A DNA stretch of 64,000 nucleotides from Candidatus Elulimicrobium sp. (GTDB taxonomy: Bacteria > Patescibacteriota > Minisyncoccia > Phycocordibacterales > UBA918): the NCBI GenBank assembly GCA_022730015.1, contig DZBU01000001.1, positions 1,307-65,306 of the forward strand, written 5' to 3'. Below, in pieces: positions 12,901 to 63,152 of the stretch. Position numbers and translations under genes: made by a program. Within the stretch, counting starts at the first letter, position 1. Every line of letters starts with the position of its first letter. The notes under the pieces were generated by a model. That model was not told where the DNA came from. It saw nothing but the letters and a program-made list of their open reading frames with translations, and made no database searches.

Positions 12901-15900
12901 ACAGGCAATATTCGTCTGGTGGTGGCTGGACTTTCGTCTGCTACCTCAAGTTGTAATGCTAGTACCGGCTACTACCAATTCACTAATGTTGCGTACGGCC
13001 CGACCGATCCGTTGATTGTCTACATTGACGGGGAAACCGAAAAGGGAACTTCAGTCACTAAGGAACCAGTTTCTAACATCAACGATCTTCATGTTTATGA
13101 AAATCGAATTATCGTTCGACACGAAAATACCGATCCAATGACGGTCGCTGACATGGCAGTTTACGATTCATCAGATGATGCAGATGTTCCATTTACTGCA
13201 GTAGATTCTGGTACGGACACACTGACGCTTCCAACTAATCGTAAATTACTCGTCTGGACCAATAAGGAATTTGCACCAAATGGTAATGTCACGGTCAGTG
13301 GTGGTGGAGCCGGTGCAGCCTACGATGGCACTCTTGAGCTTCAAACTGGCGCGACTTGGTCTGGCTCGGGAGCTGAATCGCTAGATATTGGTGGTAGCTT
13401 ACTGGCTGGTTCTGGTGCAGCTTTTGTGTCTGCAAACAATGGTACGACAACATTTACTACGACTGGCGCTAATCGTACTATCGACCTCAATGCCGCTGAT
13501 CTCAATAATGCTGCCTTTACCGGAAGTGGCAGCTGGACGGTTACTGACACAACATTTACCGTTGGTGGCAATTTTACGCAAACTAATGGTGTCCTCACTT
13601 TCCCTACCGCAACGACAACTTTCGGTGGTTCATTACAGGTTAGCGGTGGTAGCTTTAATTCAAATAACGGAATCACCCTCTTTAACGGTAGTGGTGCTCA
13701 GGTGATTGCACTGGCTGGTTCTTCGCTGGCAGCGGTGCAGTTCGTGAGTGGTAATTACAGTTTTAGCGATACGGCAGCGACTACTACCAAGTCGATTACT
13801 ATCTTGGGTGGAACAGTAACACTCCCAAGTGGTACGCTCACTGTTGGTGGAGACTTCGAAAACGTTGCAGGCGTTATCGCACACAACACGAATGAACTTA
13901 TCATGACGAGCACAACTATCGCACTCGTGCAGGCGTCTAGTTCAGACTTATACAGTGTTCGCTTTACTGGCGGTGGTGCCTATGAATTTACCGATGATAG
14001 CATCGCGTTACTTGGTAGTCTTACAATTGATGCTGGAGCGGTGCAGCTGGCTTCGGGTACGCTTTCAATCGGTGGCACCTTTGACGCTGCTGGTGGCACA
14101 TTTGATCACGCCACTGGTACGATCCTTTTCAATTCAGCCGATGGGGGAGAGTTCGTCGATGCTGGTGTTAGTCCTTTCTATAATGTTTCATTTAGTGCAC
14201 CCGCAGGCGGATACACGCTTGTGAGTGACGCTACGACTACCAATCACTTCACCCTGTCAGCTGTGAACAGTTTCACCACCCTTAGTGGTACGACGCTGGT
14301 TGTACAAGGAGTCTTCCTCAATCAGGTTGGTGGTGCTAATACCAACTGGGCTGGTAGCACCCTAGTGCTTGATGGAGCAAATGCATACACAGTAAATACT
14401 AAAATCGCTGGCGGTGATCAGTACGATACGCTTATCGTTGGTGAAAATAGTGACATTCGATTCTGGAATTCGGCAGCTACTACGACTACAGTTAATCAAA
14501 GTGCTTCAGTGTACTCACAAGATCACGCTAGTGCTAACGGTAGCCTTTACATTTTTGGTGATTTCCATATAGGGACTACAACTGAATACTGGAGTTATGC
14601 GACTGATTTTGATGGTTCCTCACTTACTGGTAGTGAACGATTAGTAACTGTTGCACATGCAACCAACGCCACGACGTCAGTTGATGGTGGTACGCTTCGA
14701 ATAGTTGGTATTACTGGGAATGAGACGACAATCACTAATCAGGGTACTGGCACCTATGCACTCAATGTTTCGGCTGGTACCTTGTTGGCACAATATTACA
14801 AATTCCGAAATCTTAATATTGAGGGACTTGCTCTCACAGGAACTCCCGTCATATCATCACTTGCATACGGAGATTTCGAATTGGCAGTATCAGGAGGCAC
14901 ACTCATGACAGTGGCATCAACCACACTCAACGCAAACGCCTCAATGGTATTCACAGGAAATCGTTTTGCTACTACCACCGCGATCACTGGTTACAACGTA
15001 ACATTAGTTGGTTCAACGAGTAATGCGTGGACTTTTGTCTCACATACAGGCAACTTAGATGGAGAAGATTTCGACGCTGATGGTGTGACAGCTTGTGGTT
15101 CGATCCGCTGGAGTGACAGTGCGTGTCTTCTTACCCAGCAGACGAACTATCGCTGGCGCAATGATGATGGGGGGCTCGGAGTACCAAATAATGAGTGGTA
15201 TGACGCAAGCTGGGACGCCCGCACATTTATTCGTGTAAGAAATGTTGATGCTACGAGCTATACTGATGCGGTGGTGAAAGTACCGGTTACTTACGATAGT
15301 GACATGCAAGCAGACTTTGATGACCTTCGTTTCACTGCAGGCGATGGAACAACAGTGCTTTCACACTGGCTTGGTTCTTCAACGGATAGTATTGCAGCTG
15401 AAGTTTGGGTAAAGATCCCTACGCTTGCTGCTGAGAGTACGACAAACATCTTCATGTACTACAACAATCCGTCTGCTACGACGATCAGCTCGAGTACGGC
15501 AGTCTTTATTGCTGCTGACGATTTTGAAACTGGTTCACTTGCTGCCTACAGTGGTCAGACGAGTCTCTTTACCGTCGGTACCACTTTCGCCAATGACGGT
15601 GTGTATGGGCTCGATAACAGCGGTGATGAAAGTGGCAGAGCTAATACTGGTGGTATCTATCGTTTCGATCAGGTGGTTGGCCAAGGGGAAACTTTCCGCT
15701 ACGCTCAATATGTCGATACTGTCGCAGGTTCTGGCGATGAAACCTGTACACTTTTCGGTGTTCAGTCACCTGGTTCCACCAACGAAAATTATGCAGTCTG
15801 TATTGAGCAATTCGGAACAGATCGTCTATCGTTGGTCCGTGATGCGATCGATAATGACACCTCAGGTGTGGTTTTGGCTTCCACGACAGTGAGTTACGCA

Positions 15901-17424
15901 ACGGGTTGGTATACCGTGGAGGTTGATTGGGGAATTGACGACAGTTTCTTAGTCTCGCTATATGATGCCTCAGGGACTTTAGTTGCGACAACTTCCGCTA
16001 CCGATAGTAATTATTCTACTGGTGGTATTGGATTTACTTACTGGTTTCATTACGGTGGTTGGGATAGTGTCAGCTCTCGCCCAACATTAACAACGGAACC
16101 AACAATACTGCTTGGTGTAGAGCAGACTGATGGAGGCGCAACCTGGAAAGCAGCGCAAAACACTGCTGCTACTTATGATACGAGTGATGTTGCTCGACTG
16201 CGCTTCGCGATTGAAAATACCGGTCTTGCCATTGTTGATCAACAATTCCTTCTTGAGTATGCATCGATGGACAGCGCTCCAAGTTGTGAAGCGGTCGATC
16301 CAACTGCCTATATTTCAGTACCTGTACAGGCAAGTTGTGGTACTGCTCCAGTGTGTATGCAATCGTCCACGCTCATTACCAATGGTGCAGGAACGATTGA
16401 TCTTCTGACTGGGGTGGAAGGAGTGTTTGTTCCTGGCGAAGCTCGCGAAGATCCAACAAATATCACTAGCGCGATCGATATCGATCAGAATCAATACACT
16501 GAACTGGAATACGCAATCACTCCGACCACAAACGTTACTGATGAAAACCTTTGTTTCCGAGTTACCGATAATGGTGCTGAATACGATACGTATCTCCAGG
16601 TGGCTCAAATGAATCTGCGCTTCGTGCCGGTGGTCAGTACGATCACTTTGAATGATGGTCAACCGATCTCGCTCTTGCCAGGAACTACCACTAGGGTTTA
16701 TGCGACAGGTACCGTAAGTGATCTTAATGGCTATGCAGATTTGGTGTACGCGACTTCAACTATCTATCGTGGTGGTGTTGCTGGTGGAGCATCGTGTACA
16801 CCAAACAATAACAACTGTTACGTTTCTACGACAGAAACAGCGGCTTGTTCGTTTGTCGATTGTTTGGGTGAAAGTTGCACGGTCGAGTGTTTCGCTGATA
16901 TTTATTTCCACGCTGACCCAACCGATGCTGGTGATTACGTGGGACAAGAATGGTTTGCTTTTGTTGAAGTAGAGGACGCTACTGCTGGGTATGATTTTGC
17001 AACCTCACCTGGAGTGACCCTGAGCACTCTCCGAGCGATCGAAGTAAATGGTGCGATCGACTATGGTGCACTCGCGGTGAATGCTGATACTGGATCGTAC
17101 AATGCATCAACATCGATTTTAAATCTTGGTAATGTGGGAATCGATATTGAAATCACAGGTACTGATCTTTCGGACGGTCTCTCATCGGTTATTCCGGTTG
17201 ATAAGCAAAAGTTCGCTACCTCTACCTTTACGTACTCAGCCTGTGGTGCAAGTTGTGAATTGCTTTCAAGTACAACTCCAGTCTCGATTGATGTCGATCT
17301 TGGTAAACCAGCGACTGATAATCCACCAATTTCTGATGATGTCTATTGGGGTATCGCGGTACCGATCGGTGTCAGTAGTGTGCCTCACCAAGGAATTAAC
17401 GTCTTTACGCCAGTCACACCGTAA
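934..17424 (+). CDS. Giant secreted multidomain surface/adhesin-like protein (5,496 aa as tracked). The likely true start is TTG 1021, giving MQRFSSATYVLFLIFTLLVFTHA|ETAF as a signal peptide.
   Basis: Single uninterrupted ORF of 16.5 kb. It has a signal-peptide-like h-region, a P/E/V/T-rich linker, recognisable domains (see findings) and a C-terminal module shared with three other proteins in the window. Confidence 0.85.
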   Translation: MVHCVVKKKHPYNTNGNRIITIFKAPKWILQRFSSATYVLFLIFTLLVFTHAETAFSKRPLEITFGTQQTLNLFPTQVNTTDWAGIENVLIQDLTDTALYQDFGARTSAYVPQEKLIIPSSAGVPTEYVPVIEGATASSVVDGQAVPEEGGAGVIGSQPEVVAPIEPTPEQLPVETQVSPEPGAVLEPPANESVVEPVSMIEPSSTAVFAPAWGLFPLAQLSVVTSTETAAQDIVDVAAPTETAQTPDTAIVEDLSQPISGVEQVVGVVSTSSESAAPEQSSAETTVTEGSVVPLATPAAATVETEVHEITLSNFGSAPLEPGQFVNGMRLTLSLAAQLEQPASGRIPYIEVLYGASSTPEVVGMILLEDEVSNALNGGYFFFALPTVSDVSELADKTVTLRYHGAHDDLDGMFLDAVWLEIDTRTVTKEDLRARGIAGALAELQLPSVTTLISEKSNFRRDENPIFNLRYNSQRNFIVRGLRHMFGRELVSVESVEVRHRSFGSLGIEPELTVTKDGLLTIEIPDASLKNMRPGAYEITLTLNEGGREFTDTFDFQWGILTMNPNKSEYQTGETAHISIGALTPNGHTICEAALDLYVTDPTGIISRYAVNPSGQCNGNNVVDVPDFSALVPVVEPGVYELYLERLDDAGAVLGFTTDTFNSVTNQELSIERTGPTRIYPPAPYPMTLTVSTTKSFIGTLTETVPASFGIYDTDAYIVSDGVWQTLTWDLSILGAGKESVSYRFDAPDISPYLFTLGPARLDTERVAPADIPNASTSATSSPGISSPGTNVFIEHRRWQIASDAVGKMLLFWPDGATVPAGWLCVSCTSGEPFFQRFVMGSSTYNTTGGAATHTHTATGSVLATSDITTENTGSGVIAIGTHTHTYTPTISAVSNLPAYRQLRVIRYDAAAGEPPTIPAGAIGVFDVASSSLPSGWNRYAAQDGRYIYGENTPGTTGGSNTHTHTITGTVDAASGGSYQSRGPDAANGSSPTHTHTVSSSTGSVSNEPPYIEVLLGQITSDAVPPNGLIAMWDEAVDSGWLDVSSGPTDPFNQRFLKASTTYGGTNDTRSHAHSNVTGLTSSVPSVTVTTARAGSGGASDVHTHSVSVTDFSISDHLPPYLTVVFGKRQGNDPVYQQVSSRWYTNTNAETPTDAWPSGALNLIEREPITATSTPVKDGDEVRLRLNVGVLNATSTVGSSFKLQYAAAAVCSTATGWADVGDTASTTLWRGYNNTSVNDHVTLSTLLLSSSTVTATYEENGYATSTPNNIPVAGYGEWDFVLQQNGALAGTNYCFRLVENDGTAFLSYTHYPQLYTNEAPAAPALQKLFDNEKTASTTPWFYFLATDAEGEKVHYEIEIDNDFTFASPVIDRNTISNSAEFENQVLISDKAPFRQGELIEFIPTTALSNGTTYYWRVRGQDPEGSADWGEWSTIRSFTIDNTLDASAWYQTQDEQFDTNILAGVQTGSDQMVLISGSSTGSMISTPIDFTDGDRGTAWDSLVFADTETTGSISYQIQYLDNTSTWTLVPESALPGNGTGFGTSPVSLLGLDVGVYSQLRIIANFTNTGGSPSLQDWTLYWGYRVETPIIAKLFPNEQVGTTTPSFEFRTSDPQSDSLTYQIQWSLTPDFAASTTRSSDVDLGFSNIDAGADLDPFNSDDSIQFTLQSADALTGTTTYWWRVRAKDTTGDNAWSFWTDAQSFTVIPGTEVSTWFQTTEEQFASNILSGTIALASDAVSVATTASEAMIVYGEGTETAPRYRQWDGTNLSTESTLLDIGAPTRWAVVRAATTREEYVAATVGTDADVNVQVFATGEWGNQVELTTNVGSVAARGIDVAYETTSGDALVVYCDGDADPSYYLWDGTSWTSGGTINLASTNNCEWIKLASDPVSNEIILMARDSDGTVATSYELQVWNGSAWGNSTTQGGARNSAYETMALGYEASGGQALSVSGDGNPIRFEYNSWNGTAWAGLTTNTTITDNLIWAELSNDDGTDNMAMCYVNESTNIGAIRWNGTAWTGQTNLDTAGNSIADRSVSCVYETTAGRDGNLLAVYSDTTNARYQVWNGTTWSAEASIGTITSVSTIQAIRTGAGSVLGLFYDDVNDRIDFSAWNGTTWSTAATIEANGSVDAAPYGQPFFAAPRNDGTEGTTIVSPGVDFNAGVGPYWKTFSWNDTVPGTSQILYHLQYQTATGSWAFIQNAALPGNEVGTTTGPFDLSALDTNTYNVIRPYAELSCDGSGNCPSIEDWKIEWAGGITISGAIQGYDQSTNVTSGTVAVSVNGVLQTGKTGAVSGGTWSISNVTVFPGDVVSVFVTAAADSNEAVAIARYDGQGDMDGLVLYERHLTLGSNDATTTPFTNADIGLYDSTNTEDVFFAVTTDTLSVCAAGDCTDAELFIKSGAYYTPGGRIVTHDFENNGTFTAGSFTHEINGSWDNNATTTMTGSAVVFAATSTTETIDSTGAVSASFNNTTFGTTTGSGVWNLPSELDVNGNLTVSLGTLARGSTSITIGGNLVTGANGYWTGIGTTTFDGGTAATWNDQNTTKQNVGRVVIDGTSKAVSLAGNVATESVTIGTNDTFDASTGSYDIMVYDSWLNQNNFVARSGEVIFAATSSGKTITTTGDAFYDLSFTGVGGGWSFTESTLLVNNDLTIATGTVTLPTATTTIAGSFNATGGSFAHNNGTLYFTSAAAETITFNGGLFTNVAHDLTFNGGGSWTVNDTNATSTNDVRVTQGTLNFPTGVFAIGGTLVDGGGVYTGGVGTVLFYSSAAEVLTPGGSSFNNVTFAGSGSWSFSDSNVDANGDLVVQQGILTLPNGAFTLGGSYDNNATVVPGTGVLTFDAAGTGRTVDFGASSLYDVDFNSATGGWTVTAPATTTRNFSLTNTDTWTLASGQVLSVAGTFSNSVGGASTTWTGSALSLEAGSYSLNTKTNNGDTYETVRIAAGTNIAMWNSSAASYTVDAAGSLYSQDHAGIDGDLYIFGAYTRGSGTEYWSYTQDFDGASLSGSERQVDVRFASGASATFSGATVEVIGTSTASTTIANQGAGTYAVNVSGGTTTAQYYEFADLGLTGVTLSNAVQVSELSDGSYTVAAPGGTALTLSSTTIDANPGKQIFNVTFATTTVITATNVTQNDGVPSSFWWFRDGYGNLYGEGYDNDTGDPGSVRFDDSSLVITIVGTVYSDAGTTPIVGGTCDGITPVVRVMVGGVLATTTSCSNVDGSYTASGVVVIGDPTVTVFLNDASGGQKGSTITRTPTGDILDMDIYTNRVIVRNEDIDALTIGNLAAYDSSDDADLRFSAATSTSVDSLNVFAGNELFVFASSTFTPGGVVTLAANTAANSYDGTLYLAGDATFNAHSTSTVTIGGRLELEAGAVFNAASTTVLMNATTSGKSITAPSEIMFNELVFNGVSGGWNLGADIRVNGDMTITAGTVTGTGDIYLPNGSLYGNGVLSLGAGTTTLAAANSLGGNSAWTFYDLELGDTLQVGTTTPLFTSTTTVSGRLTINAAHYLDAGNTSWDLSGAGIVFVENGTFIEDTSTIRYSGAGASVLATQYYNLDINAGASSQTYIATGLGLIVDNDLTIGGDAASTFDLATNDPLLDVNGDVIIHSNGTLAASDTGTFTIAGSYDNNGVFTSNSGTTTFDGSGATTIAAGSSSFGSVLVNGTGNVTVSEHATATSNFTLNAANTFTVSSGQSLAIGTKFFNAIGGAATTWTDSTLRLYGGGNYSINVATTSDTYATLDIEGTTQIRMWNSDAATYDVASTGSLYSQDHASVDGDLYIWGAYNQTNANDYWSYVTDFDGAALGSPRKVDVYLASGASVTVTGGTFAVFGGTTASTTIQNQGSGSYGIVVGGNASSSFEYAETRDMNSAGLTFTGGAKVNKLSYNDFSVSQNGGTTIMIGGTVITANPAKNFTNNRFWLDGVGSGFNVTATGTSVSSWRFVNHYGDIDGESFDVDPNGDPGYVAWDNSAALITISGNVYSDEGSTVSGVCDGTTGNIRLVVAGLSSATSSCNASTGYYQFTNVAYGPTDPLIVYIDGETEKGTSVTKEPVSNINDLHVYENRIIVRHENTDPMTVADMAVYDSSDDADVPFTAVDSGTDTLTLPTNRKLLVWTNKEFAPNGNVTVSGGGAGAAYDGTLELQTGATWSGSGAESLDIGGSLLAGSGAAFVSANNGTTTFTTTGANRTIDLNAADLNNAAFTGSGSWTVTDTTFTVGGNFTQTNGVLTFPTATTTFGGSLQVSGGSFNSNNGITLFNGSGAQVIALAGSSLAAVQFVSGNYSFSDTAATTTKSITILGGTVTLPSGTLTVGGDFENVAGVIAHNTNELIMTSTTIALVQASSSDLYSVRFTGGGAYEFTDDSIALLGSLTIDAGAVQLASGTLSIGGTFDAAGGTFDHATGTILFNSADGGEFVDAGVSPFYNVSFSAPAGGYTLVSDATTTNHFTLSAVNSFTTLSGTTLVVQGVFLNQVGGANTNWAGSTLVLDGANAYTVNTKIAGGDQYDTLIVGENSDIRFWNSAATTTTVNQSASVYSQDHASANGSLYIFGDFHIGTTTEYWSYATDFDGSSLTGSERLVTVAHATNATTSVDGGTLRIVGITGNETTITNQGTGTYALNVSAGTLLAQYYKFRNLNIEGLALTGTPVISSLAYGDFELAVSGGTLMTVASTTLNANASMVFTGNRFATTTAITGYNVTLVGSTSNAWTFVSHTGNLDGEDFDADGVTACGSIRWSDSACLLTQQTNYRWRNDDGGLGVPNNEWYDASWDARTFIRVRNVDATSYTDAVVKVPVTYDSDMQADFDDLRFTAGDGTTVLSHWLGSSTDSIAAEVWVKIPTLAAESTTNIFMYYNNPSATTISSSTAVFIAADDFETGSLAAYSGQTSLFTVGTTFANDGVYGLDNSGDESGRANTGGIYRFDQVVGQGETFRYAQYVDTVAGSGDETCTLFGVQSPGSTNENYAVCIEQFGTDRLSLVRDAIDNDTSGVVLASTTVSYATGWYTVEVDWGIDDSFLVSLYDASGTLVATTSATDSNYSTGGIGFTYWFHYGGWDSVSSRPTLTTEPTILLGVEQTDGGATWKAAQNTAATYDTSDVARLRFAIENTGLAIVDQQFLLEYASMDSAPSCEAVDPTAYISVPVQASCGTAPVCMQSSTLITNGAGTIDLLTGVEGVFVPGEAREDPTNITSAIDIDQNQYTELEYAITPTTNVTDENLCFRVTDNGAEYDTYLQVAQMNLRFVPVVSTITLNDGQPISLLPGTTTRVYATGTVSDLNGYADLVYATSTIYRGGVAGGASCTPNNNNCYVSTTETAACSFVDCLGESCTVECFADIYFHADPTDAGDYVGQEWFAFVEVEDATAGYDFATSPGVTLSTLRAIEVNGAIDYGALAVNADTGSYNASTSILNLGNVGIDIEITGTDLSDGLSSVIPVDKQKFATSTFTYSACGASCELLSSTTPVSIDVDLGKPATDNPPISDDVYWGIAVPIGVSSVPHQGINVFTPVTP
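3300..4330 (+). repeat. Three tandem phage tail-collar (MdpB-like) domain repeats inside the giant ORF.
   Basis: Three units of the form '...P.GW(L)...C..C/...FxQRF..GxxxxYGGT...THTHT' each end in 'PPY[IL]xVL/VFG': 'PAGWLCVSCTSGEPFFQRFVMGSSTYNTTGGAATHTHT', 'LPSGWNRY...GGSNTHTHT...PPYIEVLLG', 'DSGWLDVSSGPTDPFNQRFLKASTTYGGTNDTRSHAHS...PPYLTVVFG'. Confidence 0.6.
6160..7330 (+). repeat. Seven ~50-aa 'W[ND]GTxW' repeats, a predicted 7-bladed beta-propeller, inside the giant ORF.
   Basis: YRQWDGTNL, YLWDGTSWT, QVWNGSAWG, NSWNGTAWAG, IRWNGTAWTG, YQVWNGTTWS, SAWNGTTWS occur at regular ~50-55 aa spacing. Confidence 0.5.
8070..15120 (+). repeat. Three divergent tandem intragenic super-repeats (~2.3-2.4 kb each; the third is truncated). 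Each is a PATR-like parallel beta-helix section, then a 'W[TA][GD]S.L.L.G..Y..N......Y.T..........WNS.A.......S.YSQDHA...G.LYI[FW]G' domain, then a carboxypeptidase-regulatory-like 'VYSD.G...V...CDG' domain.
   Basis: Protein-level register anchors: WTGSALSLEAG at nt ~9660, WTDSTLRLYGG at ~12052, WAGSTLVLDGA at ~14348. All three copies contain 'SLYSQDHA', and the DNA shows 'tactcacaagaccatgc' and variants. The beta-helix parts show 'NVTFAGSGSWSF...GTLTLP.G.F..GG' type ~25-aa periodicity. Confidence 0.55.
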
Positions 17425-33371: not shown

Positions 33372-36300
33372 ATGGCGAGCTCACGTAAAATCAAGGAACC
33401 TATGACTTGGAGTAAGCGACAGCGAGATCGTTTGCTTTCGCCAGTGGCGGGGTTTATGATCGCGCTCCTTGCCACTCAGATGCTGCATGAGCTACTACCG
33501 ACACTTGTTCCACCGCTCGTACGCACTGTTGAAGCAGCGACTGCAACCATCGATCCAAATGGCGATATTGGTACTAATACCGGCACCCGTGTCACCTGTA
33601 CCGGCACGGTCTATTTTGAATGTCTTAATGATGCCGTACGTGATCCGTCAACTCCTAGCACAGCAGGTGATTATGTTGAGTATGCTGGCGGCAATCAGAC
33701 GAACTCGGACATGACATCGGTAACAAATGTTGCCACTGCTACGGCAATAGCCGTGAAGACGTACCATCAGGAAACGGGTACTAACATGACTCTGTCTGTT
33801 TCCTTGGTGAACGCAGCCGGTACGGTGATCGCTGGGCCGACAAGCGTCACTAATCGTGCTGTCACGCAGTGGGACACTATCACCTTCTCTGGTTTAACCT
33901 TAAATCAGGCAACGCTCGATGGTCTGTGGGTGCGCCAAACCTGTACACGCTCGGGTGGTAGCTCGGCCAACCGCTGTCGATCATTTGCCATGTACGCTGA
34001 TGTTACCTACGATCCGGTCATTAATGTAACCGTAAGCTCATTAGGAACTCAGCAAGATCTCGGTATCGCCACTTCTTCTGCTTATGTCGGAGGTAGCTTT
34101 GCCATTATTGAAAATACCTCTAGCCGCAGTATCACTTCGGTCACAGTCGCCGAACAGGGAACAGTTGATGCTCAAAATAGTTTGGACAACATAAAGCTCT
34201 ACTATGATTTAGACACTTCTAGTCCATATAACTGCTCGAGTGAATCATACGCCGGAACTGAGACGCAGTATGGAACTACTGACACTGATGGTTTTTCTAG
34301 TTCAAACGGCACCTCAGTGTTTACGGGCTCGGTGACCATCAGTACGACCCAGGCAATGTGTGTGTATGTCGTACTCGATGTTCTCAGCACGGCTACTGCA
34401 GGGGAGACCTTGGAAGTACAGATCACTGATCCGACTCTAGATGTGGTGGGAAGTGGTTCGCCGGTCATTAGTCCAGCGACAGCTGTGCTCCTTCCTGGGA
34501 CAACGACTCTGCGTAAGCCACTGCTGACGCAGGAGAACTATCACTGGCGAAATGATGACGGTAATGAAACCGCTGCTAGCTCAGCCACCGGAGGCAGTGA
34601 GAATACTTCGTACGCTACTTTTCCCAAAGCAGTCACTAAACGACTGCGCGTTGCGGTTTCCAATGAGGGAAATGCTGATTCAGCTGCCTCCCAATTTAGG
34701 CTTGAGTACGCGCAGAAAGTGACGACCTGTAGCGCGGCGACCGGCTGGACTGATGTCGGCGCGAGTACTGATGATTTTGATATGTCGCCAACTGGCAATA
34801 TTACTGACGGTGATAATTCAACAGATATCTCCAATGCCATTGGCGGTGTGACCAACCCTAACAGTAGTCTCTTGAGTTCAAACGGTGGTCTTCGTGATAC
34901 CAACTCGCAGACTGGTTCACTGACCTTGACGAGTACGCAGTTTGTCGAACTTGAGTATGCAATCATCGCAAGTAGTGGTCTTACCGACGGAACGACGTAC
35001 TGCTTCCGTGTGACCAATGCCGGTACGCCACTCCCGGCGTACACCAACTACCCAGAGGCCACCATTGCGGCAGATGTGCTGGTCGACTCGATCGGTTCGC
35101 AGACCACCACGGTCACCATTCCTACTACTGGTCAGTATGCTGGCGGAGCCTTCCGGGTCACCGACCTCACTGCGGGCGCTGGGACGATATCAAGTATTGC
35201 CATCACCGCCAGTGGGAGCATCGATATTCAAAATGATGTAGCAACTATCACGCTTCGTTACGACCTCGACACGAGTAATCCCTATACCTGTGACGATGTT
35301 TCGTATGCCAATACTGACGCGTCGTTTGGCAGTACGGTTGCAAATTTTAATGGTAGTAACAAAGCGACCTTCACCGGTTCAGTCAGTAATTCACCGACAC
35401 AAACGGTGTGTCTCTATGTCGAATACAACGTGGGCACGGGCGCCAGTAACGGTGAGTTGCTCGACCTTCGTATTGTTGATCCATCGAGTGAAGTGGTGAT
35501 CAGCGGTTCATCTGTGTCGCCTAATACTCCGGTCGATATCGGGGATGTGACAACTTTTGCGGCGCCGTATGTGGAGCAAGTTAACTATCACTGGCGTAAC
35601 AACGATGGTTCGGAAACAACCGCTAGCTCTGCCACGGGTGGGACACAGAACACTCCGCTCACTGAGGTGGCCAAGAATTCTACGTACCGACTGCGTTTTG
35701 CAGTGGCCAATACTGGTCTCACGACAGCACCAGAAACGCGCTATCAGCTCGAATGGGCGCAAAAGGTGAGCACGTGTAGCGCGGTGCCGGATATCGACTG
35801 GGAGCGTGCTGATACAATACTTGATGCCTGGCAAATGTCACCGACTGGTAACCTTACTGAAGGAAACGACACGACTGACATTGTAGAGAGTACGGGAGGG
35901 GTGGGGAACCCAGCTGCAACGTTTCTGGTTAATAATAACGGTGTCAACGATACGACAGACCTAACTGCCTCTTCGACATTGCCAGCTGACAATTACCTCG
36001 ACTTAGAATATTCGATCAGCGCCACCGATGATTCAGTGCAGGGGGCGACCTACTGTTTCCGAGTGAGTGCAGCTGGTAGTGCGTTAGTAAATTATACGAA
36101 TTATCCTGAGGTGAGTATCAAACTCGATACCGACTTCAAGGTACAACGAGGAGTATCGACGATTACTGGTGACACACTGACTATCACTGCTGGAGTTGAG
36201 TACGAGGCGCCACTTACCTCGAGTAGCTCGTTCATTCGTATCACCAACACGCAACTTACCGGTGCTGGGCCGAACACTGGCAACACCAACAGCAACGCCG

Positions 36301-38894
36301 ATGACGTGACGGTGTACATCACCAACCCGTCCAACATTTTGAGTAGCATTACTTTCGCACGCGGTATTGGTGCAGTGAGTAATACTCGCGTTTCTTGGGA
36401 GATCATCGAGTACACCGGTGTAGCTGGCGGTGAGAATGAGATCATTGTGCGGCAACAGGAGGCGATCTCGTACGGAGCAGCGAATACAGCAGTTAGTGGT
36501 ACAGTGACCAACACCATTGTGGATGATACCGATGTGGCCGTGTTCATCACTGGCCAGTTCAACGCTGATACAGGTCGTAACGCCTATGGTCAGGGATTTT
36601 CAATTGCCGCTTGGAACACTACCAATAATCAAGTAGACCTTACCCGTGGGCTTTCTGGTTCAGTTTCTAGTGTCAGCTATGCGCTCGTTGAGTTTACTGG
36701 AACCAACTGGAAGATCCAGCGAATTTCACATACGTACACAGCGGCTGGTGCAGTGGAGACCAGTGCCATGACTGCAGTGAATAGTCTCTCTCGTACCTTC
36801 ACACACACGCAAAAACTAACACCTTCGAACAACCACGCTGACATTGGTCACGAGGTCTGGCTCTCGGGTATTGGCCAGGTGTCATTCTTACTCGATGCGG
36901 CAGCGGCCACTCCAAGTGGACATACCTCAGTCGCATGGGTCATTGAGAATACCCAAACGCAAGGGTTGATCATGAAGGTGTCGCGTGCCAACAGCTCGCT
37001 TGCAGCGGGTGCCACAGCCCCCGAGACAAATAATCTCAATATCGGTGTCACTATTGCTGACCTTTCTACTGCTTCGCTATTTGTGAATAACCGCAGCGAT
37101 GGTGCGACCCGTTCCTTTCCAGAACCGATCCTGGGAGCACGATTGATTTCTACAACGCAGTACGAGCTCTGGCGAAGTGACACGAGTTCAAATCTTAACT
37201 ATCGTACCGAAGTGGTCGAGTGGCCAACCGCGGCACGAAAACTTGAACAAAACTATTTCCGCTTGTACGAGGATAACAATGCTCTCACTCCAACTGTTGC
37301 TTGGCCCGCGAGTGTGGGTACTCTCGGTGAAAATACGGAAATGACTGCCGATGACAACCCGCTGGCGCTTGGTGATACTGTGCGTATTAGAATGACCATT
37401 TCTGTCACAAGTTCAGTGATGCCATCTGCGCTGGATGCATTCCGTCTTGAGTATGCTGAACGAGTGACCACTTGTTCAGCAATTTCCACTTGGAGTGAAC
37501 TCGGCGAAGTTGGTAGTACAACCGCGTCATGGCGCGGAACCAATAACGCTCCGGTTGACGGTACGGCACTTTCGACTGAGCCTCCAACCGGTGGTGATCT
37601 TTTGATCTCGATCGCGACTGTGGCGGGTACGTACGAAGAAGAAAATAACTCTGCTCTCAACCCGTACATTGCATTCCCAGGAGATGAGGTCGAATACGAC
37701 TGGGTGGTGCAACATAACGGTGCCAAGGATAAAACTGCATACTGCTTCCGCATGGTGGAATCAACCGGAACTACGTTTGAAAACTATAATTTCTATCCAG
37801 TCATTAGAACGGTTGGCTATGAGCCGATCCTCAAAACGTGGCGTTGGTATGGAGATGAAAATAATCTCACACCAACCTCAGCCCTAGCGGCGGAAAACGT
37901 GGCGCCGATCGACATTCCAAACGAGGACATCATCAAGCTGCGGCTCACTCTGCGGGAAAGTTCTGGTGCAGCTGGAAATAACAATAAGTTTATCGTCCAG
38001 TACTCCGAATATGCAGATTTTTCAGTTGGAGTGCACACCCTCACCAGTACGAGCACCTGTCTTGAAAATTCATTGTGGTGTTACGCTGATGGAGCGGGAG
38101 TAGATAATCAGCTTATCAATGCTGCGGTTATTTCAGATGCCGCTACATGCACGGCTGGTGTTGGTGTTGGTTGTGGTACGCACAATGAAGGTACGAGTAC
38201 TGCCACTGCAACTTTTGATCAGGTGGCGTTTACTACCACGGAGTATGAATTTACTTTGCAACACGCGGGTGCACGTGCCAGTGCGGTGTACTACTTCCGA
38301 CTCTACGATAGTACTACGGCAGAGCTAGTCGGACTTGGAGCAACCTCTACGTACCCTTCACTTGTGACAGAGGGTGCACAACTTGTATCGACGCTAGCGG
38401 GTGTAGATGCAGGAACTGCTGTGGCGGGGATCATTGCTGATGCTACTACTACTCCAACTTCTATTGGTTTCGGCTCGTTGCCGTTTAATAATTCCTATGA
38501 AGCCGTGCAACGCATTACTGTGACTACCAACGCCACGGAGGGCTATCAGTTATTGATGTATGCAACACAGCAGTTGACAAATACATATGGCGATGTCGTT
38601 CCTCCTGTCACGAGTACCAATGCCGCGCCAGCTGGTTGGTCAAGTGGATGTGCGGCACCAGCGATCGGCTGTTTTGGCTATCACACCACAGATGCGACCT
38701 TAGAGGGCGGGTCCGGTCGATTTGCGCCGATTGATTCTTATGCTGCACTTGATACTGCGGCACAGGAGATAATGTACAGTTCGATTCCAGCTACTGACAC
38801 TCATGACATCGTGTATCGAGTACTTGTGACGGAACAACAACCAGCCGGAGATTATCAGACGAGTATTGTCTATATGTCCATCCCCGTTTTTTAA
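33372..38894 (+). CDS. Large (1,840 aa) secreted surface protein built from about four copies of an unnamed ~180-aa module and ending in a WxL-like C-terminal module.
   Basis: N-terminal TM/signal VAGFMIALLATQMLHELLPTLVPPL. Module starts ENYHWRNDDGNE, VNYHWRNNDGSE, NYFRLYEDNN and TWRWYGDENN, each containing 'RLR..V.N.G', 'LEYA.[KR]V.TCSA' and 'YCFR[VM]'. C-terminus '...GWSSGCAAPAIGC...DYQTSIVYMSIPVF'. Confidence 0.85.
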   Translation: MASSRKIKEPMTWSKRQRDRLLSPVAGFMIALLATQMLHELLPTLVPPLVRTVEAATATIDPNGDIGTNTGTRVTCTGTVYFECLNDAVRDPSTPSTAGDYVEYAGGNQTNSDMTSVTNVATATAIAVKTYHQETGTNMTLSVSLVNAAGTVIAGPTSVTNRAVTQWDTITFSGLTLNQATLDGLWVRQTCTRSGGSSANRCRSFAMYADVTYDPVINVTVSSLGTQQDLGIATSSAYVGGSFAIIENTSSRSITSVTVAEQGTVDAQNSLDNIKLYYDLDTSSPYNCSSESYAGTETQYGTTDTDGFSSSNGTSVFTGSVTISTTQAMCVYVVLDVLSTATAGETLEVQITDPTLDVVGSGSPVISPATAVLLPGTTTLRKPLLTQENYHWRNDDGNETAASSATGGSENTSYATFPKAVTKRLRVAVSNEGNADSAASQFRLEYAQKVTTCSAATGWTDVGASTDDFDMSPTGNITDGDNSTDISNAIGGVTNPNSSLLSSNGGLRDTNSQTGSLTLTSTQFVELEYAIIASSGLTDGTTYCFRVTNAGTPLPAYTNYPEATIAADVLVDSIGSQTTTVTIPTTGQYAGGAFRVTDLTAGAGTISSIAITASGSIDIQNDVATITLRYDLDTSNPYTCDDVSYANTDASFGSTVANFNGSNKATFTGSVSNSPTQTVCLYVEYNVGTGASNGELLDLRIVDPSSEVVISGSSVSPNTPVDIGDVTTFAAPYVEQVNYHWRNNDGSETTASSATGGTQNTPLTEVAKNSTYRLRFAVANTGLTTAPETRYQLEWAQKVSTCSAVPDIDWERADTILDAWQMSPTGNLTEGNDTTDIVESTGGVGNPAATFLVNNNGVNDTTDLTASSTLPADNYLDLEYSISATDDSVQGATYCFRVSAAGSALVNYTNYPEVSIKLDTDFKVQRGVSTITGDTLTITAGVEYEAPLTSSSSFIRITNTQLTGAGPNTGNTNSNADDVTVYITNPSNILSSITFARGIGAVSNTRVSWEIIEYTGVAGGENEIIVRQQEAISYGAANTAVSGTVTNTIVDDTDVAVFITGQFNADTGRNAYGQGFSIAAWNTTNNQVDLTRGLSGSVSSVSYALVEFTGTNWKIQRISHTYTAAGAVETSAMTAVNSLSRTFTHTQKLTPSNNHADIGHEVWLSGIGQVSFLLDAAAATPSGHTSVAWVIENTQTQGLIMKVSRANSSLAAGATAPETNNLNIGVTIADLSTASLFVNNRSDGATRSFPEPILGARLISTTQYELWRSDTSSNLNYRTEVVEWPTAARKLEQNYFRLYEDNNALTPTVAWPASVGTLGENTEMTADDNPLALGDTVRIRMTISVTSSVMPSALDAFRLEYAERVTTCSAISTWSELGEVGSTTASWRGTNNAPVDGTALSTEPPTGGDLLISIATVAGTYEEENNSALNPYIAFPGDEVEYDWVVQHNGAKDKTAYCFRMVESTGTTFENYNFYPVIRTVGYEPILKTWRWYGDENNLTPTSALAAENVAPIDIPNEDIIKLRLTLRESSGAAGNNNKFIVQYSEYADFSVGVHTLTSTSTCLENSLWCYADGAGVDNQLINAAVISDAATCTAGVGVGCGTHNEGTSTATATFDQVAFTTTEYEFTLQHAGARASAVYYFRLYDSTTAELVGLGATSTYPSLVTEGAQLVSTLAGVDAGTAVAGIIADATTTPTSIGFGSLPFNNSYEAVQRITVTTNATEGYQLLMYATQQLTNTYGDVVPPVTSTNAAPAGWSSGCAAPAIGCFGYHTTDATLEGGSGRFAPIDSYAALDTAAQEIMYSSIPATDTHDIVYRVLVTEQQPAGDYQTSIVYMSIPVF

Positions 38895-42041: not shown

Positions 42042-42611
42042 ATGAAGCAGTTCTCTCGAGACAGGGTCGCGACATTCATTGTAATTGGAGTAATTCTCCT
42101 CGTTGCTTTGGTGTACACACTGTTTGTGATCAGTCAAAACAAACGAGAACAAGCTAATGACAATCCTGCCAACCAGGCTTTGCAGGTGGCTGCTGATGAA
42201 GTGCCCTACACTGACCTTGCTGGGAATCCGCTGTCCTTAGATGAGTATGTAGGAAAGGTGTTGGTTGTTAATTCATGGGCAAGCTGGAGTCCAGATTCTG
42301 CTACTGAGCTAAAAATCTTTGCCGCACTTCGCTCAAAATATGACCTTGATGAAGTTGTGATACTGGCGATCAATCGCGCGGAACCCCAAACTACTGCTGA
42401 GCGCTACCTGCGTACCTTAGCGGTGTCTGATCAGGTGCAGCTAGTTCTTGATCCGACTGATCGATACTATCGATCAATTGGCGGCTTCGCGATGCCAGAA
42501 ACGATCATTTACGATCGAAAGGGAGGTATCGTTCACCATCAGCGCGGCCCGCTAACCGCAGATCAAGCGTCCGTCTATATTGACCAAGCACTGTCCAAAC
42601 AAGATGAGTAG
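42042..42611 (+). CDS. Membrane-anchored TlpA/ResA-like thioredoxin-fold protein whose CxxC active site is replaced by SxxS (WASWSPDS). It is probably redox-inactive.
   Basis: N-terminal TM. 'KVLVVNSWASWSPDSATELKIF...VVILAINRAEP' matches the TlpA-family 'V.VNFWA.WC.PC..E.P' region except that both Cys positions are Ser. Confidence 0.7.
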   Translation: MKQFSRDRVATFIVIGVILLVALVYTLFVISQNKREQANDNPANQALQVAADEVPYTDLAGNPLSLDEYVGKVLVVNSWASWSPDSATELKIFAALRSKYDLDEVVILAINRAEPQTTAERYLRTLAVSDQVQLVLDPTDRYYRSIGGFAMPETIIYDRKGGIVHHQRGPLTADQASVYIDQALSKQDE

Positions 42612-42617
42612 GGTGTG

Positions 42618-42645
42618 CTTTACAGACAGTTAACTCATGATATAA
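42618..42645 (+). promoter_or_regulatory. Sigma70-type promoter: -35 TTTACA, 16-nt spacer, extended -10 TGaTATAAT.
   Basis: Read directly: tttaca 42618-42623, tgatataat 42637-42645. Confidence 0.5.
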
Positions 42646-42736
42646 TTTGCACGGATTGGCAAGAGTCCGTTCGCGACCATCCACCTTTACGTGGAGCCTC
42701 TGTCGAAAGAGGTTTCAAAGTCGCAAGTGAGAAGGT

Positions 42737-42892
42737 ATGTTCAAAGCCATCGGATTCTTGATAGTTCTTTATGGACTGTCACATTTCTTTTCCTCAGCAT
42801 TTATAGCTCTCGATAGTGCTGCGAGCGCATCATTTAAAACACTCGAGACTGCGGCAATCGTGTCGCAAATGCAACTGCAGGAGAAATTGTAG
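42737..42892 (+). CDS. Candidate 51-aa small hydrophobic protein (MFKAIGFLIVLYGLSHFFSSAFIALDS...), not in the ORF track because it is under 60 aa.
   Basis: ATG at 42737 follows GAGAAGG. One predicted TM helix. It is flanked by the promoter at 42618-42645 and a hairpin plus T-run at 42903-42935. Confidence 0.3.
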   Translation: MFKAIGFLIVLYGLSHFFSSAFIALDSAASASFKTLETAAIVSQMQLQEKL

Positions 42893-42902
42893 ATATAGAG
42901 GA

Positions 42903-42935
42903 TCATGCCTGTGCATGGTCCTTTTTGTATCCATA
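42903..42935 (+). terminator. Hairpin ggatcatgcc-tgt-gcatggtcc followed by tttttg.
   Basis: Read directly. The stem has one mismatch. Confidence 0.4.
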
Positions 42936-42957
42936 GGGAATACTGTATACTAGCAAT

Positions 42958-44013
42958 ATGCAACTTAGTCGTGTGGTTCAATACGTATTTTTCTTCGCGC
43001 TGCTGCTGCTTGCGGGGTACATGGTATGGCTCATCATGCAGCCCTTTGTAACCGCATTAGCACTCTCGCTCATTATTGTTACGATCTGTCACCCGCTTTA
43101 CATGCAAATTAAGAAACGAGTGCCTAGGCAAAATAAATCGATTGCTGCATTCTTGACAACGTTTTTAGTGTTACTGGTTATTATTATTCCAGTCATCCTC
43201 CTTTCTTCGCTGGTAGTGCGAGAGATTGTTACTTTTTATCAGGATCTTGACGCTGGTAACCTTTCGCTCCAGTCGGGAATTACGACAATTGAAGCCCGCA
43301 TTCAAGCCTTCGTTCCTAATTTTAAGATTGATCTCAACGAACAAATAAAACAAACGGCCCAATGGTTAACTGGTAGTTTGGGGGCAATATTCAAAGGAAC
43401 ACTTTCTACTATTTTCATATTCTTCATATCGCTGATCGGTTCGTTCTATTTTTTTCGTGACGGCAGAGACTTTCTGCAGGTGTTGATTAAGGCTAGCCCG
43501 CTTCCAGATCGCGAAGATCAGGCGATTTTACAGCGGTTAGCTAAAGCAATTCGAGCCGTTGCGACTGGGACAGTGCTTGTTGCTCTGATTCAGGGGTCTC
43601 TGGTTGCTATCGGGTTCACCATCTTTGGTGTAGATCGAGCTATTCTTTGGGGTTCAATAGCAGCATTGGGGGCACTTATGCCAGGTCTTGGTACAACCAT
43701 CGTGACAGCGCCAGCCATCGTTTACCTCTTCTACGTAGGTGAGCTTTTCAGTGCTTTTGGTTTGCTGATCTGGTCAATGCTCATCGTTGGTCTGGTCGAC
43801 AACCTCATTGGTCCGTATCTCATCGGTCGAGGTAATAATCTTCATCCGTTCATTGTACTCATCTCAGTACTTGGTGGTATTGCGCTATTTGGACCGATTG
43901 GATTTATTATTGGCCCAGTTATAGTGACGCTTTTTTTGGTCTTGCTTGAAATATATAATCAGTATGTTGTGCAGGATAAATCAATCGACGAAGCTGTTAA
44001 AATCAAACTATGA
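42958..44013 (+). CDS. AI-2E family transporter (PerM/YhhT/TqsA-like, UPF0118) membrane protein.
   Basis: About 8 predicted TM segments in ~350 aa. The characteristic C-terminal region is 'GGIALFGPIGFIIGPVIVTLFLVLLEIY'. Confidence 0.75.
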   Translation: MQLSRVVQYVFFFALLLLAGYMVWLIMQPFVTALALSLIIVTICHPLYMQIKKRVPRQNKSIAAFLTTFLVLLVIIIPVILLSSLVVREIVTFYQDLDAGNLSLQSGITTIEARIQAFVPNFKIDLNEQIKQTAQWLTGSLGAIFKGTLSTIFIFFISLIGSFYFFRDGRDFLQVLIKASPLPDREDQAILQRLAKAIRAVATGTVLVALIQGSLVAIGFTIFGVDRAILWGSIAALGALMPGLGTTIVTAPAIVYLFYVGELFSAFGLLIWSMLIVGLVDNLIGPYLIGRGNNLHPFIVLISVLGGIALFGPIGFIIGPVIVTLFLVLLEIYNQYVVQDKSIDEAVKIKL

Positions 44014-60900: not shown

Positions 60901-60973
60901 GGGCCCGTAGCTCACTTGGTAGAGCGCCTCATTTGCACTGAGGAGGCAGGGAGTTCGAATCTTCTCGGGTCCA
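60901..60973 (+). tRNA. tRNA-Ala (anticodon TGC).
   Basis: Manual cloverleaf. Acceptor GGGCCCG/CGGGTCC has the G3:U70 Ala identity pair. D-arm GCTC-ACTTGGTA-GAGC. Anticodon arm CCTCA-TTTGCAC-TGAGG. T-arm GGGAG-TTCGAAT-CTTCT has two G:U pairs. Discriminator A. CCA is not encoded. Confidence 0.8.
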
Positions 60974-60976
60974 CAA

Positions 60977-63074: not shown

Positions 63075-63147
63075 GGGCCCTTAGCTCATTCGGTAGAGCG
63101 CTTCCATGGCATGGAAGAGGCGAGCGGTTCGAATCCGCTAGGGTCCA
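63075..63147 (+). tRNA. tRNA-Ala (anticodon GGC).
   Basis: Manual cloverleaf. Acceptor GGGCCCT/AGGGTCC with G3:U70. D-arm GCTC-ATTCGGTA-GAGC. Anticodon arm CTTCC-ATGGCAT-GGAAG. T-arm AGCGG-TTCGAAT-CCGCT. Discriminator A. An extended -10 tgctacaat lies at 63056-63064. Confidence 0.85.
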
Positions 63148-63152
63148 CAAAT

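Follow-up and report, generated by a model that had tools for sequence, protein, structure and literature searches.

The window examined here is a stretch of 64,000 nucleotides (nt) from Candidatus Elulimicrobium sp. (contig DZBU01000001.1), and positions below count from its first letter unless another locus is named. A gap of 345 nt separates a membrane-anchored thioredoxin-like gene (Redoxin/AhpC-TSA; end at 42611) from the gene of an AI-2E transporter (start at 42958), and the question is what this gap encodes and how its expression might be controlled. Parcubacteria, members of the candidate phyla radiation (CPR), are uncultivated and have tiny genomes, and little is known of their post-transcriptional regulation. 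A first-pass annotation of the window had seen in the gap an orphan promoter, a structured leader, a 51-codon hydrophobic open reading frame (ORF) and a terminator, and had proposed a candidate small RNA (sRNA) or small-membrane-protein gene. Comparison with related loci leads us to a reading of the whole that we consider somewhat probable: the small ORF (sORF) is a conserved membrane-protein gene, and its folded leader gates translation through RNA structure. Coordinates of all elements are collected in Table 1.

A predicted small membrane protein under purifying selection

Fifty-six related loci were gathered from genome and metagenome collections, and the comparisons use 48 or fewer non-redundant ones. 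Among 32 distinct genes, pairwise divergence at codon positions 1, 2 and 3 was 0.32, 0.19 and 0.585, respectively, a pattern that indicates purifying selection acting on the protein. Sixteen columns are invariant across 14 aligned sequences, no frameshift or stop variant of the ORF occurs in the 48 non-redundant loci compared, and in-frame stops stand directly 5' of the ATG in several relatives. The sORF is the most conserved portion of the transcript. Of the two possibilities raised by the first-pass annotation, that of a membrane-protein gene is thus borne out by purifying selection, by a family of ~50-residue proteins and by a helix of transmembrane grade, whereas that of an sRNA fares poorly, the ORF being what is best conserved. 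The reading frame encodes just the 51 residues that had been read from it, and the antisense ORF at 42769..42981, which had been thought unlikely to be a gene, is interrupted by stops in relatives.

A word-indexed search returned seven clusters of proteins of 50–57 amino acids with 65–80% identity to the sORF protein, one of which carries the label hypothetical protein and comes from a metagenome-assembled ‘Candidatus Pacebacteria’ genome. An exhaustive profile search extended the family to at least 128 clusters at 50% identity (E up to 1e-3; 61 with E up to 1e-10), and a second search seeded with distant members added 86 more, the named ones being Pacebacteria, Paceibacterota or Minisyncoccia. 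Nearly all members are about 48–55 residues long; longer calls, of up to ~100 residues, align only by their C-terminal ~50 residues and so look like over-extended start codons. In a subfamily with the N-terminus MRKGIRSG, the protein starts four residues earlier (loci L023-L027, L032-L034, L036, L040 and L046-L052). One 50-residue member, P0136, has been named ‘Mg2+/Co2+ transporter CorB’ by the Joint Genome Institute (JGI), almost certainly a spurious automatic annotation, and a few members sit in bins labelled Acidimicrobiales, Patiriisocius or Azotimanducaceae, labels that probably come from mis-binning.

AlphaFold2, given an alignment of 54 sequences, predicted one unbroken helix over residues 2–50 (mean predicted local distance difference test score, pLDDT, 94.4), and the 19-residue Kyte-Doolittle profile peaks at 1.89 over residues 7–25. 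In 96% of members the N-terminus bears a positive charge, and the net charge of the C-terminal half averages -2.3, which argues for a single-pass protein with its N-terminus in and its C-terminus out. In such a topology residues ~4–25 would cross the membrane, with the basic N-terminus inside and the acidic, Ala-rich, amphipathic C-terminal half outside; from the predicted structure, this half probably packs against itself or a partner. Conserved small residues are spaced i, i+3/4, i+7 (G6, G13, A28/29, A39/40), a spacing that suggests tight helix–helix packing. The window protein has no match in Pfam or NCBIfam, where searches with 54 family members gave scattered single-member hits, all with E above 0.009, and a profile search of the PDB with the sORF protein found no significant match (best E = 1.9). 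The comparative data and the structural model support the sORF as the gene of a conserved, predicted small single-pass membrane protein of Paceibacteria/Parcubacteria.

A predicted monocistronic transcription unit

The promoter ahead of the sORF (TG at 42638-39, -10 hexamer TATAAT at 42641-42646) matches the consensus at 11 of 12 positions. It is the sole + strand site in the 64-kb window that combines at least 11/12 matches with an extended -10, and the top-scoring promoter there; first-order Markov shuffles of the window lead one to expect 0.07 such sites by chance. The end of the -10 box falls 81–110 nt 5' of the ATG in 39 of 41 non-redundant related loci, in 31 of them within the -100..-91 bin. 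Using a crude automatic choice of -10 box, AG was found at the predicted start position in 30 of 48 relatives. The predicted leader is 84 nt long in the window and about 77–99 nt (median 89) across relatives. At the other end of the unit, 39 of the 43 related loci scanned have a hairpin and T-run 0–13 nt past the stop codon, the stem sequences differing; a simple terminator scanner misses the terminator of the window. The first-pass annotation had anticipated each of these elements and had looked to their conservation, and all are kept in position in related loci. Its boundaries shift slightly: the TTTACA-16-TGaTATAAT promoter is indeed the best of the window and ends at 42646, not 42645; the leader put at ~85 nt from a start near 42652 is present, but its predicted start is G42653; and the hairpin and T-run placed at 42903-42935 exist, but the hairpin begins 3 nt earlier, at 42900.

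Promoter, leader, ORF and terminator are all kept in more than 45 related Paceibacteria/Parcubacteria loci. Relatives also keep the gene order Redoxin–sORF–AI-2E transporter, and distant members, at ~40% identity, mostly occupy the same position. Apart from the stand-alone loci, the AI-2E gene lies 50–80 nt 3' of the sORF wherever downstream sequence exists. Of 39 loci, 35 carry a -10-like hexamer 5–8 nt ahead of the AI-2E start codon, mostly TATACT and often TGTATACT, which implies that the AI-2E transporter mRNA is leaderless. In the window, the T-run of the sORF terminator overlaps the spot where the -35 box of the AI-2E promoter would fall (42922-42960). With a separate promoter for AI-2E, the sORF forms a transcription unit of its own. 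Stand-alone sORFs occur in two independent lineages, L048-L050 (1480-1644) and L056 (3001-3156), where promoter, leader and terminator are retained and the neighbours are a methyltransferase-like ORF in one lineage and ClpB, a type IV secretion system (T4SS)-pilin-like gene and miaA in the other. These loci lack Redoxin and AI-2E neighbours, and hence the link with the transporter is not obligatory. An operon with the AI-2E transporter is ruled out by the terminator, by the transporter's leaderless promoter and by the stand-alone sORFs. There is one sORF copy per locus; single copy, synteny down to ~40% identity and conservation over the full length indicate a vertically inherited housekeeping gene rather than an addiction module. 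From its sequence elements the sORF is an autonomous monocistronic gene with a predicted transcript of ~275 nt, and this anatomy, together with the coding status of the ORF, is a part of our reading that we hold with high confidence.

The promoter spacer of the sORF holds the palindrome TAGCA(T/A)AT(A)TGCTA in six related loci, once in each and nowhere outside the spacer. Its form resembles that of an operator bound by a dimeric transcription factor. The window lacks this palindrome; its promoter spacer has the short palindromes AGTTAACT and TCATGA, while L004 has CATGATTAATTAATCATG.

A covarying three-way junction in the leader

The leader contains a compact three-way junction of helices P1, P2 and P3. 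Its hairpins are exactly those described in the first-pass annotation, which had also named covariation across relatives as a check. When 32 distinct leaders were aligned, many compensatory changes were found in P1 and P3. A covariance model built from P1, P2 and P3 gave exactly one match per locus, always directly 5' of the sORF, and recognised the distant loci L053 and L056 as well. In the alignment fitted to this model, compensatory changes affect both sides of 16 of the 18 pairs, and 87.6% of cells form pairs as against 33–46% when the partners are slid by 1–3 columns; the covariation score was reached by none of 500 column shuffles. A model-fitted alignment leans towards structure, and the slid controls and an independent MAFFT/RNAalifold analysis agree with it. 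Judged by covariation, the junction is real.

Several unpaired positions are conserved. The P2 loop is A/U-rich, of an ‘AUUUAG’ type, with UUUA[G/C] or AUUAG in 30 of 48 loci (background 13%). The P3 loop is conserved as N[U/G]CGAN and can be read as a GNRA-like (GNRA/UMAC-like) tetraloop on a covarying closing pair. Further conserved nucleotides are GUUUC in the J3/1 segment and GCAA past P1. An all-against-all scan for covarying columns revealed no pseudoknot or tertiary pairs beyond P1–P3, and a by-eye check of pairing between the P3 loop and a ‘CCGAC’ segment found no covariation.

No Rfam family matched the leader region of the window (42500-43050; E up to 10) or the leaders of 10 related loci. 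The junction motif was not found before other genes in 248 kb of locus sequence, whole genomes not having been searched. Likenesses to hammerhead, T-loop and guanidine-II RNAs, which the loop sequences had called to mind, were dropped given the tetraloop behaviour of P3 and the lack of an Rfam match; guanidine-II (mini-ykkC) requires two ACGR-tetraloop hairpins, and here only P3 carries N[U/G]CGAN, the P2 loop being A/U-rich. In one related locus, L040, positions 312-539 gave a sub-threshold Rfam match to the cspA thermoregulator (29.7 bits vs a gathering score of 78; E = 1.6e-4), ~240 nt 5' of its sORF.

A long-range helix between leader and coding region

The first-pass annotation had missed one pairing: the 5' end of the leader pairs with codons 5–11 of the ORF, forming a helix that we call H0. 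Against dinucleotide shuffles, the whole 284-nt transcript folds with z = -4.0 and the isolated leader with z = -2.6. Pair probabilities in H0 are ~1.0 in the 123-nt 5' region of the window transcript. The leader strand of H0 can also fold locally, into a hairpin P0; the two use a common strand and are mutually exclusive. Junction and H0 are compatible, at -39.6 kcal/mol (unconstrained minimum free energy -40.8), whereas junction and P0 together reach -31.6, 8 kcal/mol less stable. In sequential folding of the window transcript, P0 and P1–P3 persist until ORF nt +20, and H0 displaces P0 once nt +26 is out; the barrier of the direct path from P0 to H0 is estimated at about 13 kcal/mol.

The informative test of H0 is an energy-based permutation test. 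Duplexes of a leader with its own ORF scored -16.2 kcal/mol, against -12.45 ± 0.46 for permuted partners, and none of 5000 permutations was as low. Two control pairings in the same test (junction segment with ORF; 5' segment with ORF nt +61..+96) showed no effect. The longest-contiguous-helix statistic is less suited to the purpose and separates weakly (8.27 vs 7.24 bp). At the level of codons, the synonymous third positions of codons 4–7 covary with the paired leader nucleotide, so that a Gly codon GGA, GGU or GGC is matched by UCC, ACC or GCC in the leader. Complementarity recurs in relatives with other sequences: AUCCGAUGGC with GCCAUCGGAU, AGGAAUCCAAUUGCU with GGCAAUUGGAUUCCU, CAGAAAACCAA with UUGGUUUUCUG and ACCAAUAGC with GCUAUUGGU. 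In the MRKGIRSG subfamily it takes the form of UUCUGAUUCC with GGAAUCAGAA, and a leader motif CUGAUUC pairs with GAAUCAG. In full-length folding ensembles, at least six H0 pairs are expected in 30 of 47 loci, distant ones included. H0 starts at ORF nt +15 in the window and at +7 to +10 in several relatives. The permutation test and the codon changes show H0, a helix predicted by folding, to co-evolve with the ORF, and H0 is probably the functional core of the leader element.

Two side observations concern the same region. The conserved leader sequence CUGAUYC of the MRKGIRSG subfamily is the complement of its extra Gly-Ile-Arg codons. Inside the window ORF, at 42759-42790, a 9-bp hairpin UGAUAGUUC...GGACUGUCA is followed by CAUUUCUUUU and was called terminator-like by the scanner; it overlaps the distal part of the downstream strand of H0, and its U-run consists of conserved Phe-Phe codons.

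Initiation without a Shine-Dalgarno sequence and a proposed model for gating

Between P1 and H0 lies a single-stranded stretch that includes the start codon and is flanked by helices; it measures roughly 22–32 nt across loci, and 41 of 48 loci have the motif YAA[C/A/U] at -18..-8. None of about 35 long ORFs in the window is preceded by a Shine-Dalgarno-like motif, so the lack of one is not special to the sORF. A subgroup of Parcubacteria is reported to have lost the anti-Shine-Dalgarno sequence (PMC9297842), and the situation in the window fits this report. Given this absence and the presence of leaderless genes, initiation here must rely on an open, A/C-rich start region. Several other genes of the window also have TATACT-like boxes 6–7 nt before the start codon (e.g. 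27264, 50256). Nearly all genes of the window lie on the + strand.

We propose that the first ~115 nt of the mRNA would act as one conserved domain, in which the junction is closed by H0. During synthesis P0 and the junction would form first and leave the start region free; with ~26 nt of the ORF synthesised, H0, being more stable, could displace P0, and would then clamp the downstream half of the ribosome landing site and bury the 5' end. P0 would delay the formation of H0. Translation would in this way be gated by RNA folding, either kinetically or via a factor that reads the conserved loops, and the loops of the junction would be contact points for a putative protein, ribosome or ligand that tunes the balance between P0 and H0. 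The base-paired 5' end and the terminator would also stabilise the mRNA. We infer three things: H0 acts on the start codon by repressing it, not by presenting it; P0 serves as a kinetic trap; and the loops are bound by a factor. Taken alone, the gating mechanism falls a little short of an even chance in our estimation.

Several findings weigh against gating by H0. Roughly one third of loci have a weak H0 or none, and the helix is thus recurrent rather than universal. A synonymous-recoding test gave a modest effect (mean z -0.63; Fisher p 3e-4, from non-independent sequences). Only some two thirds of relatives have a predicted hairpin near the 5' end, and P0 has no more than moderate support. 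H0 leaves the AUG uncovered; a start at +15 may be tolerable for a 30S subunit, and so the helix could present the start codon instead of blocking it. The start region has an intermediate predicted accessibility (about 0.47), a value that is indecisive on sequestration. The junction itself varies: the subfamily of 12 loci with the MRKGIRSG N-terminus keeps P1 and P3, has lost P2 and carries an AUUUAG-like motif in an internal loop, which argues that the junction is not an invariant pocket. The distant locus L055 resembles this subfamily, and the leader of L054 is rearranged. Finally, transcription start, transcript length and translation are predictions, and the trans-acting factor or ligand is postulated.

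Alternative explanations

The junction might be the aptamer of a new riboswitch class, in which a small molecule or ion shifts the balance between P0 and H0 and thereby controls translation. Its compactness (~52 nt), its strong covariation and conserved loop and junction nucleotides, its place directly 5' of the start codon and beside a mutually exclusive pair of helices, and the fact that it matches no known family speak for such an RNA. Riboswitches usually govern several related genes, however, and this element accompanies one gene family, in one copy per locus; the loss of P2 in the 12-locus subfamily and some distant members, and the differing P3 loops there, are hard to square with a binding pocket; and neither form of classical expression platform turned up, be it an internal terminator or sequestration of the start codon by a P1 strand. 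We regard a riboswitch as improbable. A little less improbable, though still unlikely, is a leader that is purely architectural: a ribonuclease (RNase)-resistant paired 5' domain and an unpaired start region that together give high constitutive expression, with no switching. The near-consensus promoter and strong terminator agree with this, as do the pairing of the 5' nucleotide in P0 and in H0 alike, the AUG held in a conserved single strand between helices, and a genome in which genes do without Shine-Dalgarno motifs and leaderless genes are present. A stabiliser, however, needs no conserved loops such as the P2-loop UUUA[G/C]/AUUAG and the P3-loop NCGA, no helix that tracks synonymous changes in codons 4–9 and no two mutually exclusive 5' conformers.

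Two further explanations concern the product. Were the sORF a type I toxin like Hok, TisB or AapA, silenced by mRNA folding and accompanied by an undetected antisense or trans-acting RNA antitoxin, its small, hydrophobic, single-helix peptide would be in keeping, and so would a long-range mRNA interaction with a possible metastable hairpin, as in type I toxin mRNAs (PMC6733600). Against this, minus-strand sites that resemble promoters are dispersed and share no conserved position among 41 relatives, there is no conserved antisense ORF, and a divergent sRNA gene has no space, given that only 8 nt separate the end of the upstream gene from the -35 box; moreover, the gene occurs once per locus, is mostly syntenic and is conserved over its full length. 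We consider a toxin very unlikely. Slightly less credible still is a transcript that serves chiefly as a regulatory sRNA, or as a dual-function RNA in the manner of SgrS or RNAIII, with loops that pair with mRNAs and an ORF that is spurious or of secondary importance. In favour are the short length of the transcript, its delimitation by promoter and terminator, and its conserved exposed loops, one with a YUNR-like UUUA motif; but the ORF is its best-conserved part, with a clear coding signature and a family of at least 128 clusters, and neither a complementary target nor covarying pairs outside the helices were identified. The preferred reading remains a membrane-protein gene with structure-gated translation.

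Features of the locus and of the window

Beyond the sORF locus, the window contains two giant ORFs on the + strand, 934-17424 (5496 amino acids) and 33372-38894 (1840 amino acids), and two tRNA-Ala genes 2 kb apart, at 60901-60974 and 63075-63148, with anticodons UGC and GGC. The two tRNAs were the only matches when the whole window was searched against Rfam at gathering thresholds.

Table 1. Elements of the sORF locus and neighbouring signals (window coordinates unless a locus is named)
Feature	Position	Strand	Details
Sigma-70-type promoter	42619..42646	+	-35 TTTACA 42619-24; 16-nt spacer; extended -10 TGaTATAAT 42638-46
Predicted transcription start (G42653)	42653	+	From promoter geometry, 7 nt past -10; P0 and H0 both start here
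5'-terminal segment	42653..42669	+	GGAUUG.G.CAAGAGUCCG; either hairpin P0 or upstream strand of H0
P0, local hairpin	42653-57/42664-68	+	GGAUU/AGUCC; predicted fold
Three-way junction P1–P3	42673..42724	+	Covariance-model match 42665-42739, 69 bits
P1	42673-77/42720-24	+	GCGAC/GUCGC
P2	42680-84/42691-95	+	UCCAC-CUUUAC-GUGGA; loop CUUUAC
P3	42696-701/42708-13	+	GCCUCU-GUCGAA-AGAGGU; loop GUCGAA
J3/1			UUCAAA (window sequence)
Single-stranded stretch	42725..42750	+	26 nt between P1 and H0; A/C-rich linker, AUG (42737), codons 2–5
sORF	42737..42892	+	51 codons; encodes MFKAIGFLIVLYGLSHFFSSAFIALDSAASASFKTLETAAIVSQMQLQEKL; predicted single-pass membrane protein
Peptide named for the sORF protein			TLETAAIVSQMQLQEK
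H0, downstream strand	42751..42767	+	ORF nt +15..+31, codons 5–11; CGGAUUCUUG.A.UAGUUC; pairs with 42653-42669
Intrinsic terminator	42900..42926	+	9-bp G+C-rich hairpin 42900-08/42913-21, loop CUGU, then UUUUU 42922-26; hairpin GGAUCAUGC-CUGU-GCAUGGUCC at 42900-42921
Promoter of the next gene (AI-2E)	42944..42960	+	Extended -10 TGTATACT (42944-51), 6 nt before ATG; outside the sORF transcript
Promoter-spacer palindrome in related loci	L030 1385-1398; L035 1386-1399; L039 1386-1399; L041 874-887; L045 1388-1401; L056 2896-2909		TAGCA(T/A)AT(A)TGCTA

Implications and comparison with known systems

In the libraries searched, neither the protein family nor the leader RNA has been described. The leader is a well-supported undescribed structured RNA motif, and its alignment could seed a new Rfam family; the ~50-residue membrane proteins, probably highly expressed and at present annotated as ‘hypothetical’ or missed, could likewise seed a new Pfam family. 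Both RNA and protein are small enough for direct work in vitro. A stronger form of the idea, which seems to us unlikely, sees in the leader a novel type of translational switch, suited to bacteria whose Shine-Dalgarno pairing has been lost, in which the junction senses a ligand, a protein or the ribosome and so sets the closure of the H0 clamp. If this were true, an abundant, clade-defining membrane peptide of episymbiotic CPR bacteria would be made only from nascent transcripts or upon a specific signal.

In kind, small membrane proteins are already known, as are cis-acting folded leaders with a long-distance interaction. Like AcrZ, KdpF, MgtS and MgrB, the sORF protein has ~50 residues and one transmembrane helix, and its gene adjoins that of a transporter (AI-2E) in nearly all loci; unlike them, it has no sequence homology to described families, is transcribed apart from AI-2E and also occurs where there is no transporter. 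With three-way-junction riboswitch aptamers, such as the purine class, the leader shares a compact junction with conserved loops just 5' of the start and alternative pairings at the initiation region, but its motif is tied to a single gene, has a P2 that a subfamily can dispense with and matches nothing in Rfam. The rpoS leader and the cspA thermosensor are translational leaders opened by trans factors, with a similar junction or alternative pairing near the start. The mRNAs of type I toxins are highly folded, and long-range pairing and transient hairpins control the access of ribosomes to them (PMC6733600). The hok/Sok, tisB/IstR-1 and aapA/IsoA systems resemble the sORF in making a small hydrophobic membrane peptide from a heavily folded mRNA, but the sORF has no conserved antisense RNA gene or promoter and is single-copy, syntenic and vertically inherited down to ~40% identity.

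The closest parallel is found in the leader of the maturation (A-protein) gene of Levivirus RNA phages (MS2, fr, KU1), where a 5' upstream complementary sequence pairs with the ribosome-binding site and closes a multi-armed leader, and where a metastable 5' hairpin holds the upstream strand so that only nascent RNA is translated (PMC4615214). As predicted for the window transcript, the upstream strand at 42653-69, H0, the junction and P0 share the topology of the phage leader, and this likeness leads us to favour structure-gated translation. There are differences: sequence and covariance-model similarity between the two leaders is lacking, the phage helix covers a Shine-Dalgarno sequence whereas the sORF has none and H0 covers codons 5–11, and kinetic control has been demonstrated experimentally for MS2 and is inferred for the sORF. 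Where the phage has a four-armed cloverleaf in a viral genome, the sORF has a three-way junction in a cellular mRNA. The locus would be a rare cellular case of a clamp from the 5' end to the coding region with the ‘delayed folding’ leader architecture of MS2, new in three respects: it belongs to a cellular mRNA, it operates where there is no Shine-Dalgarno site, and its clamp closes on the coding region.

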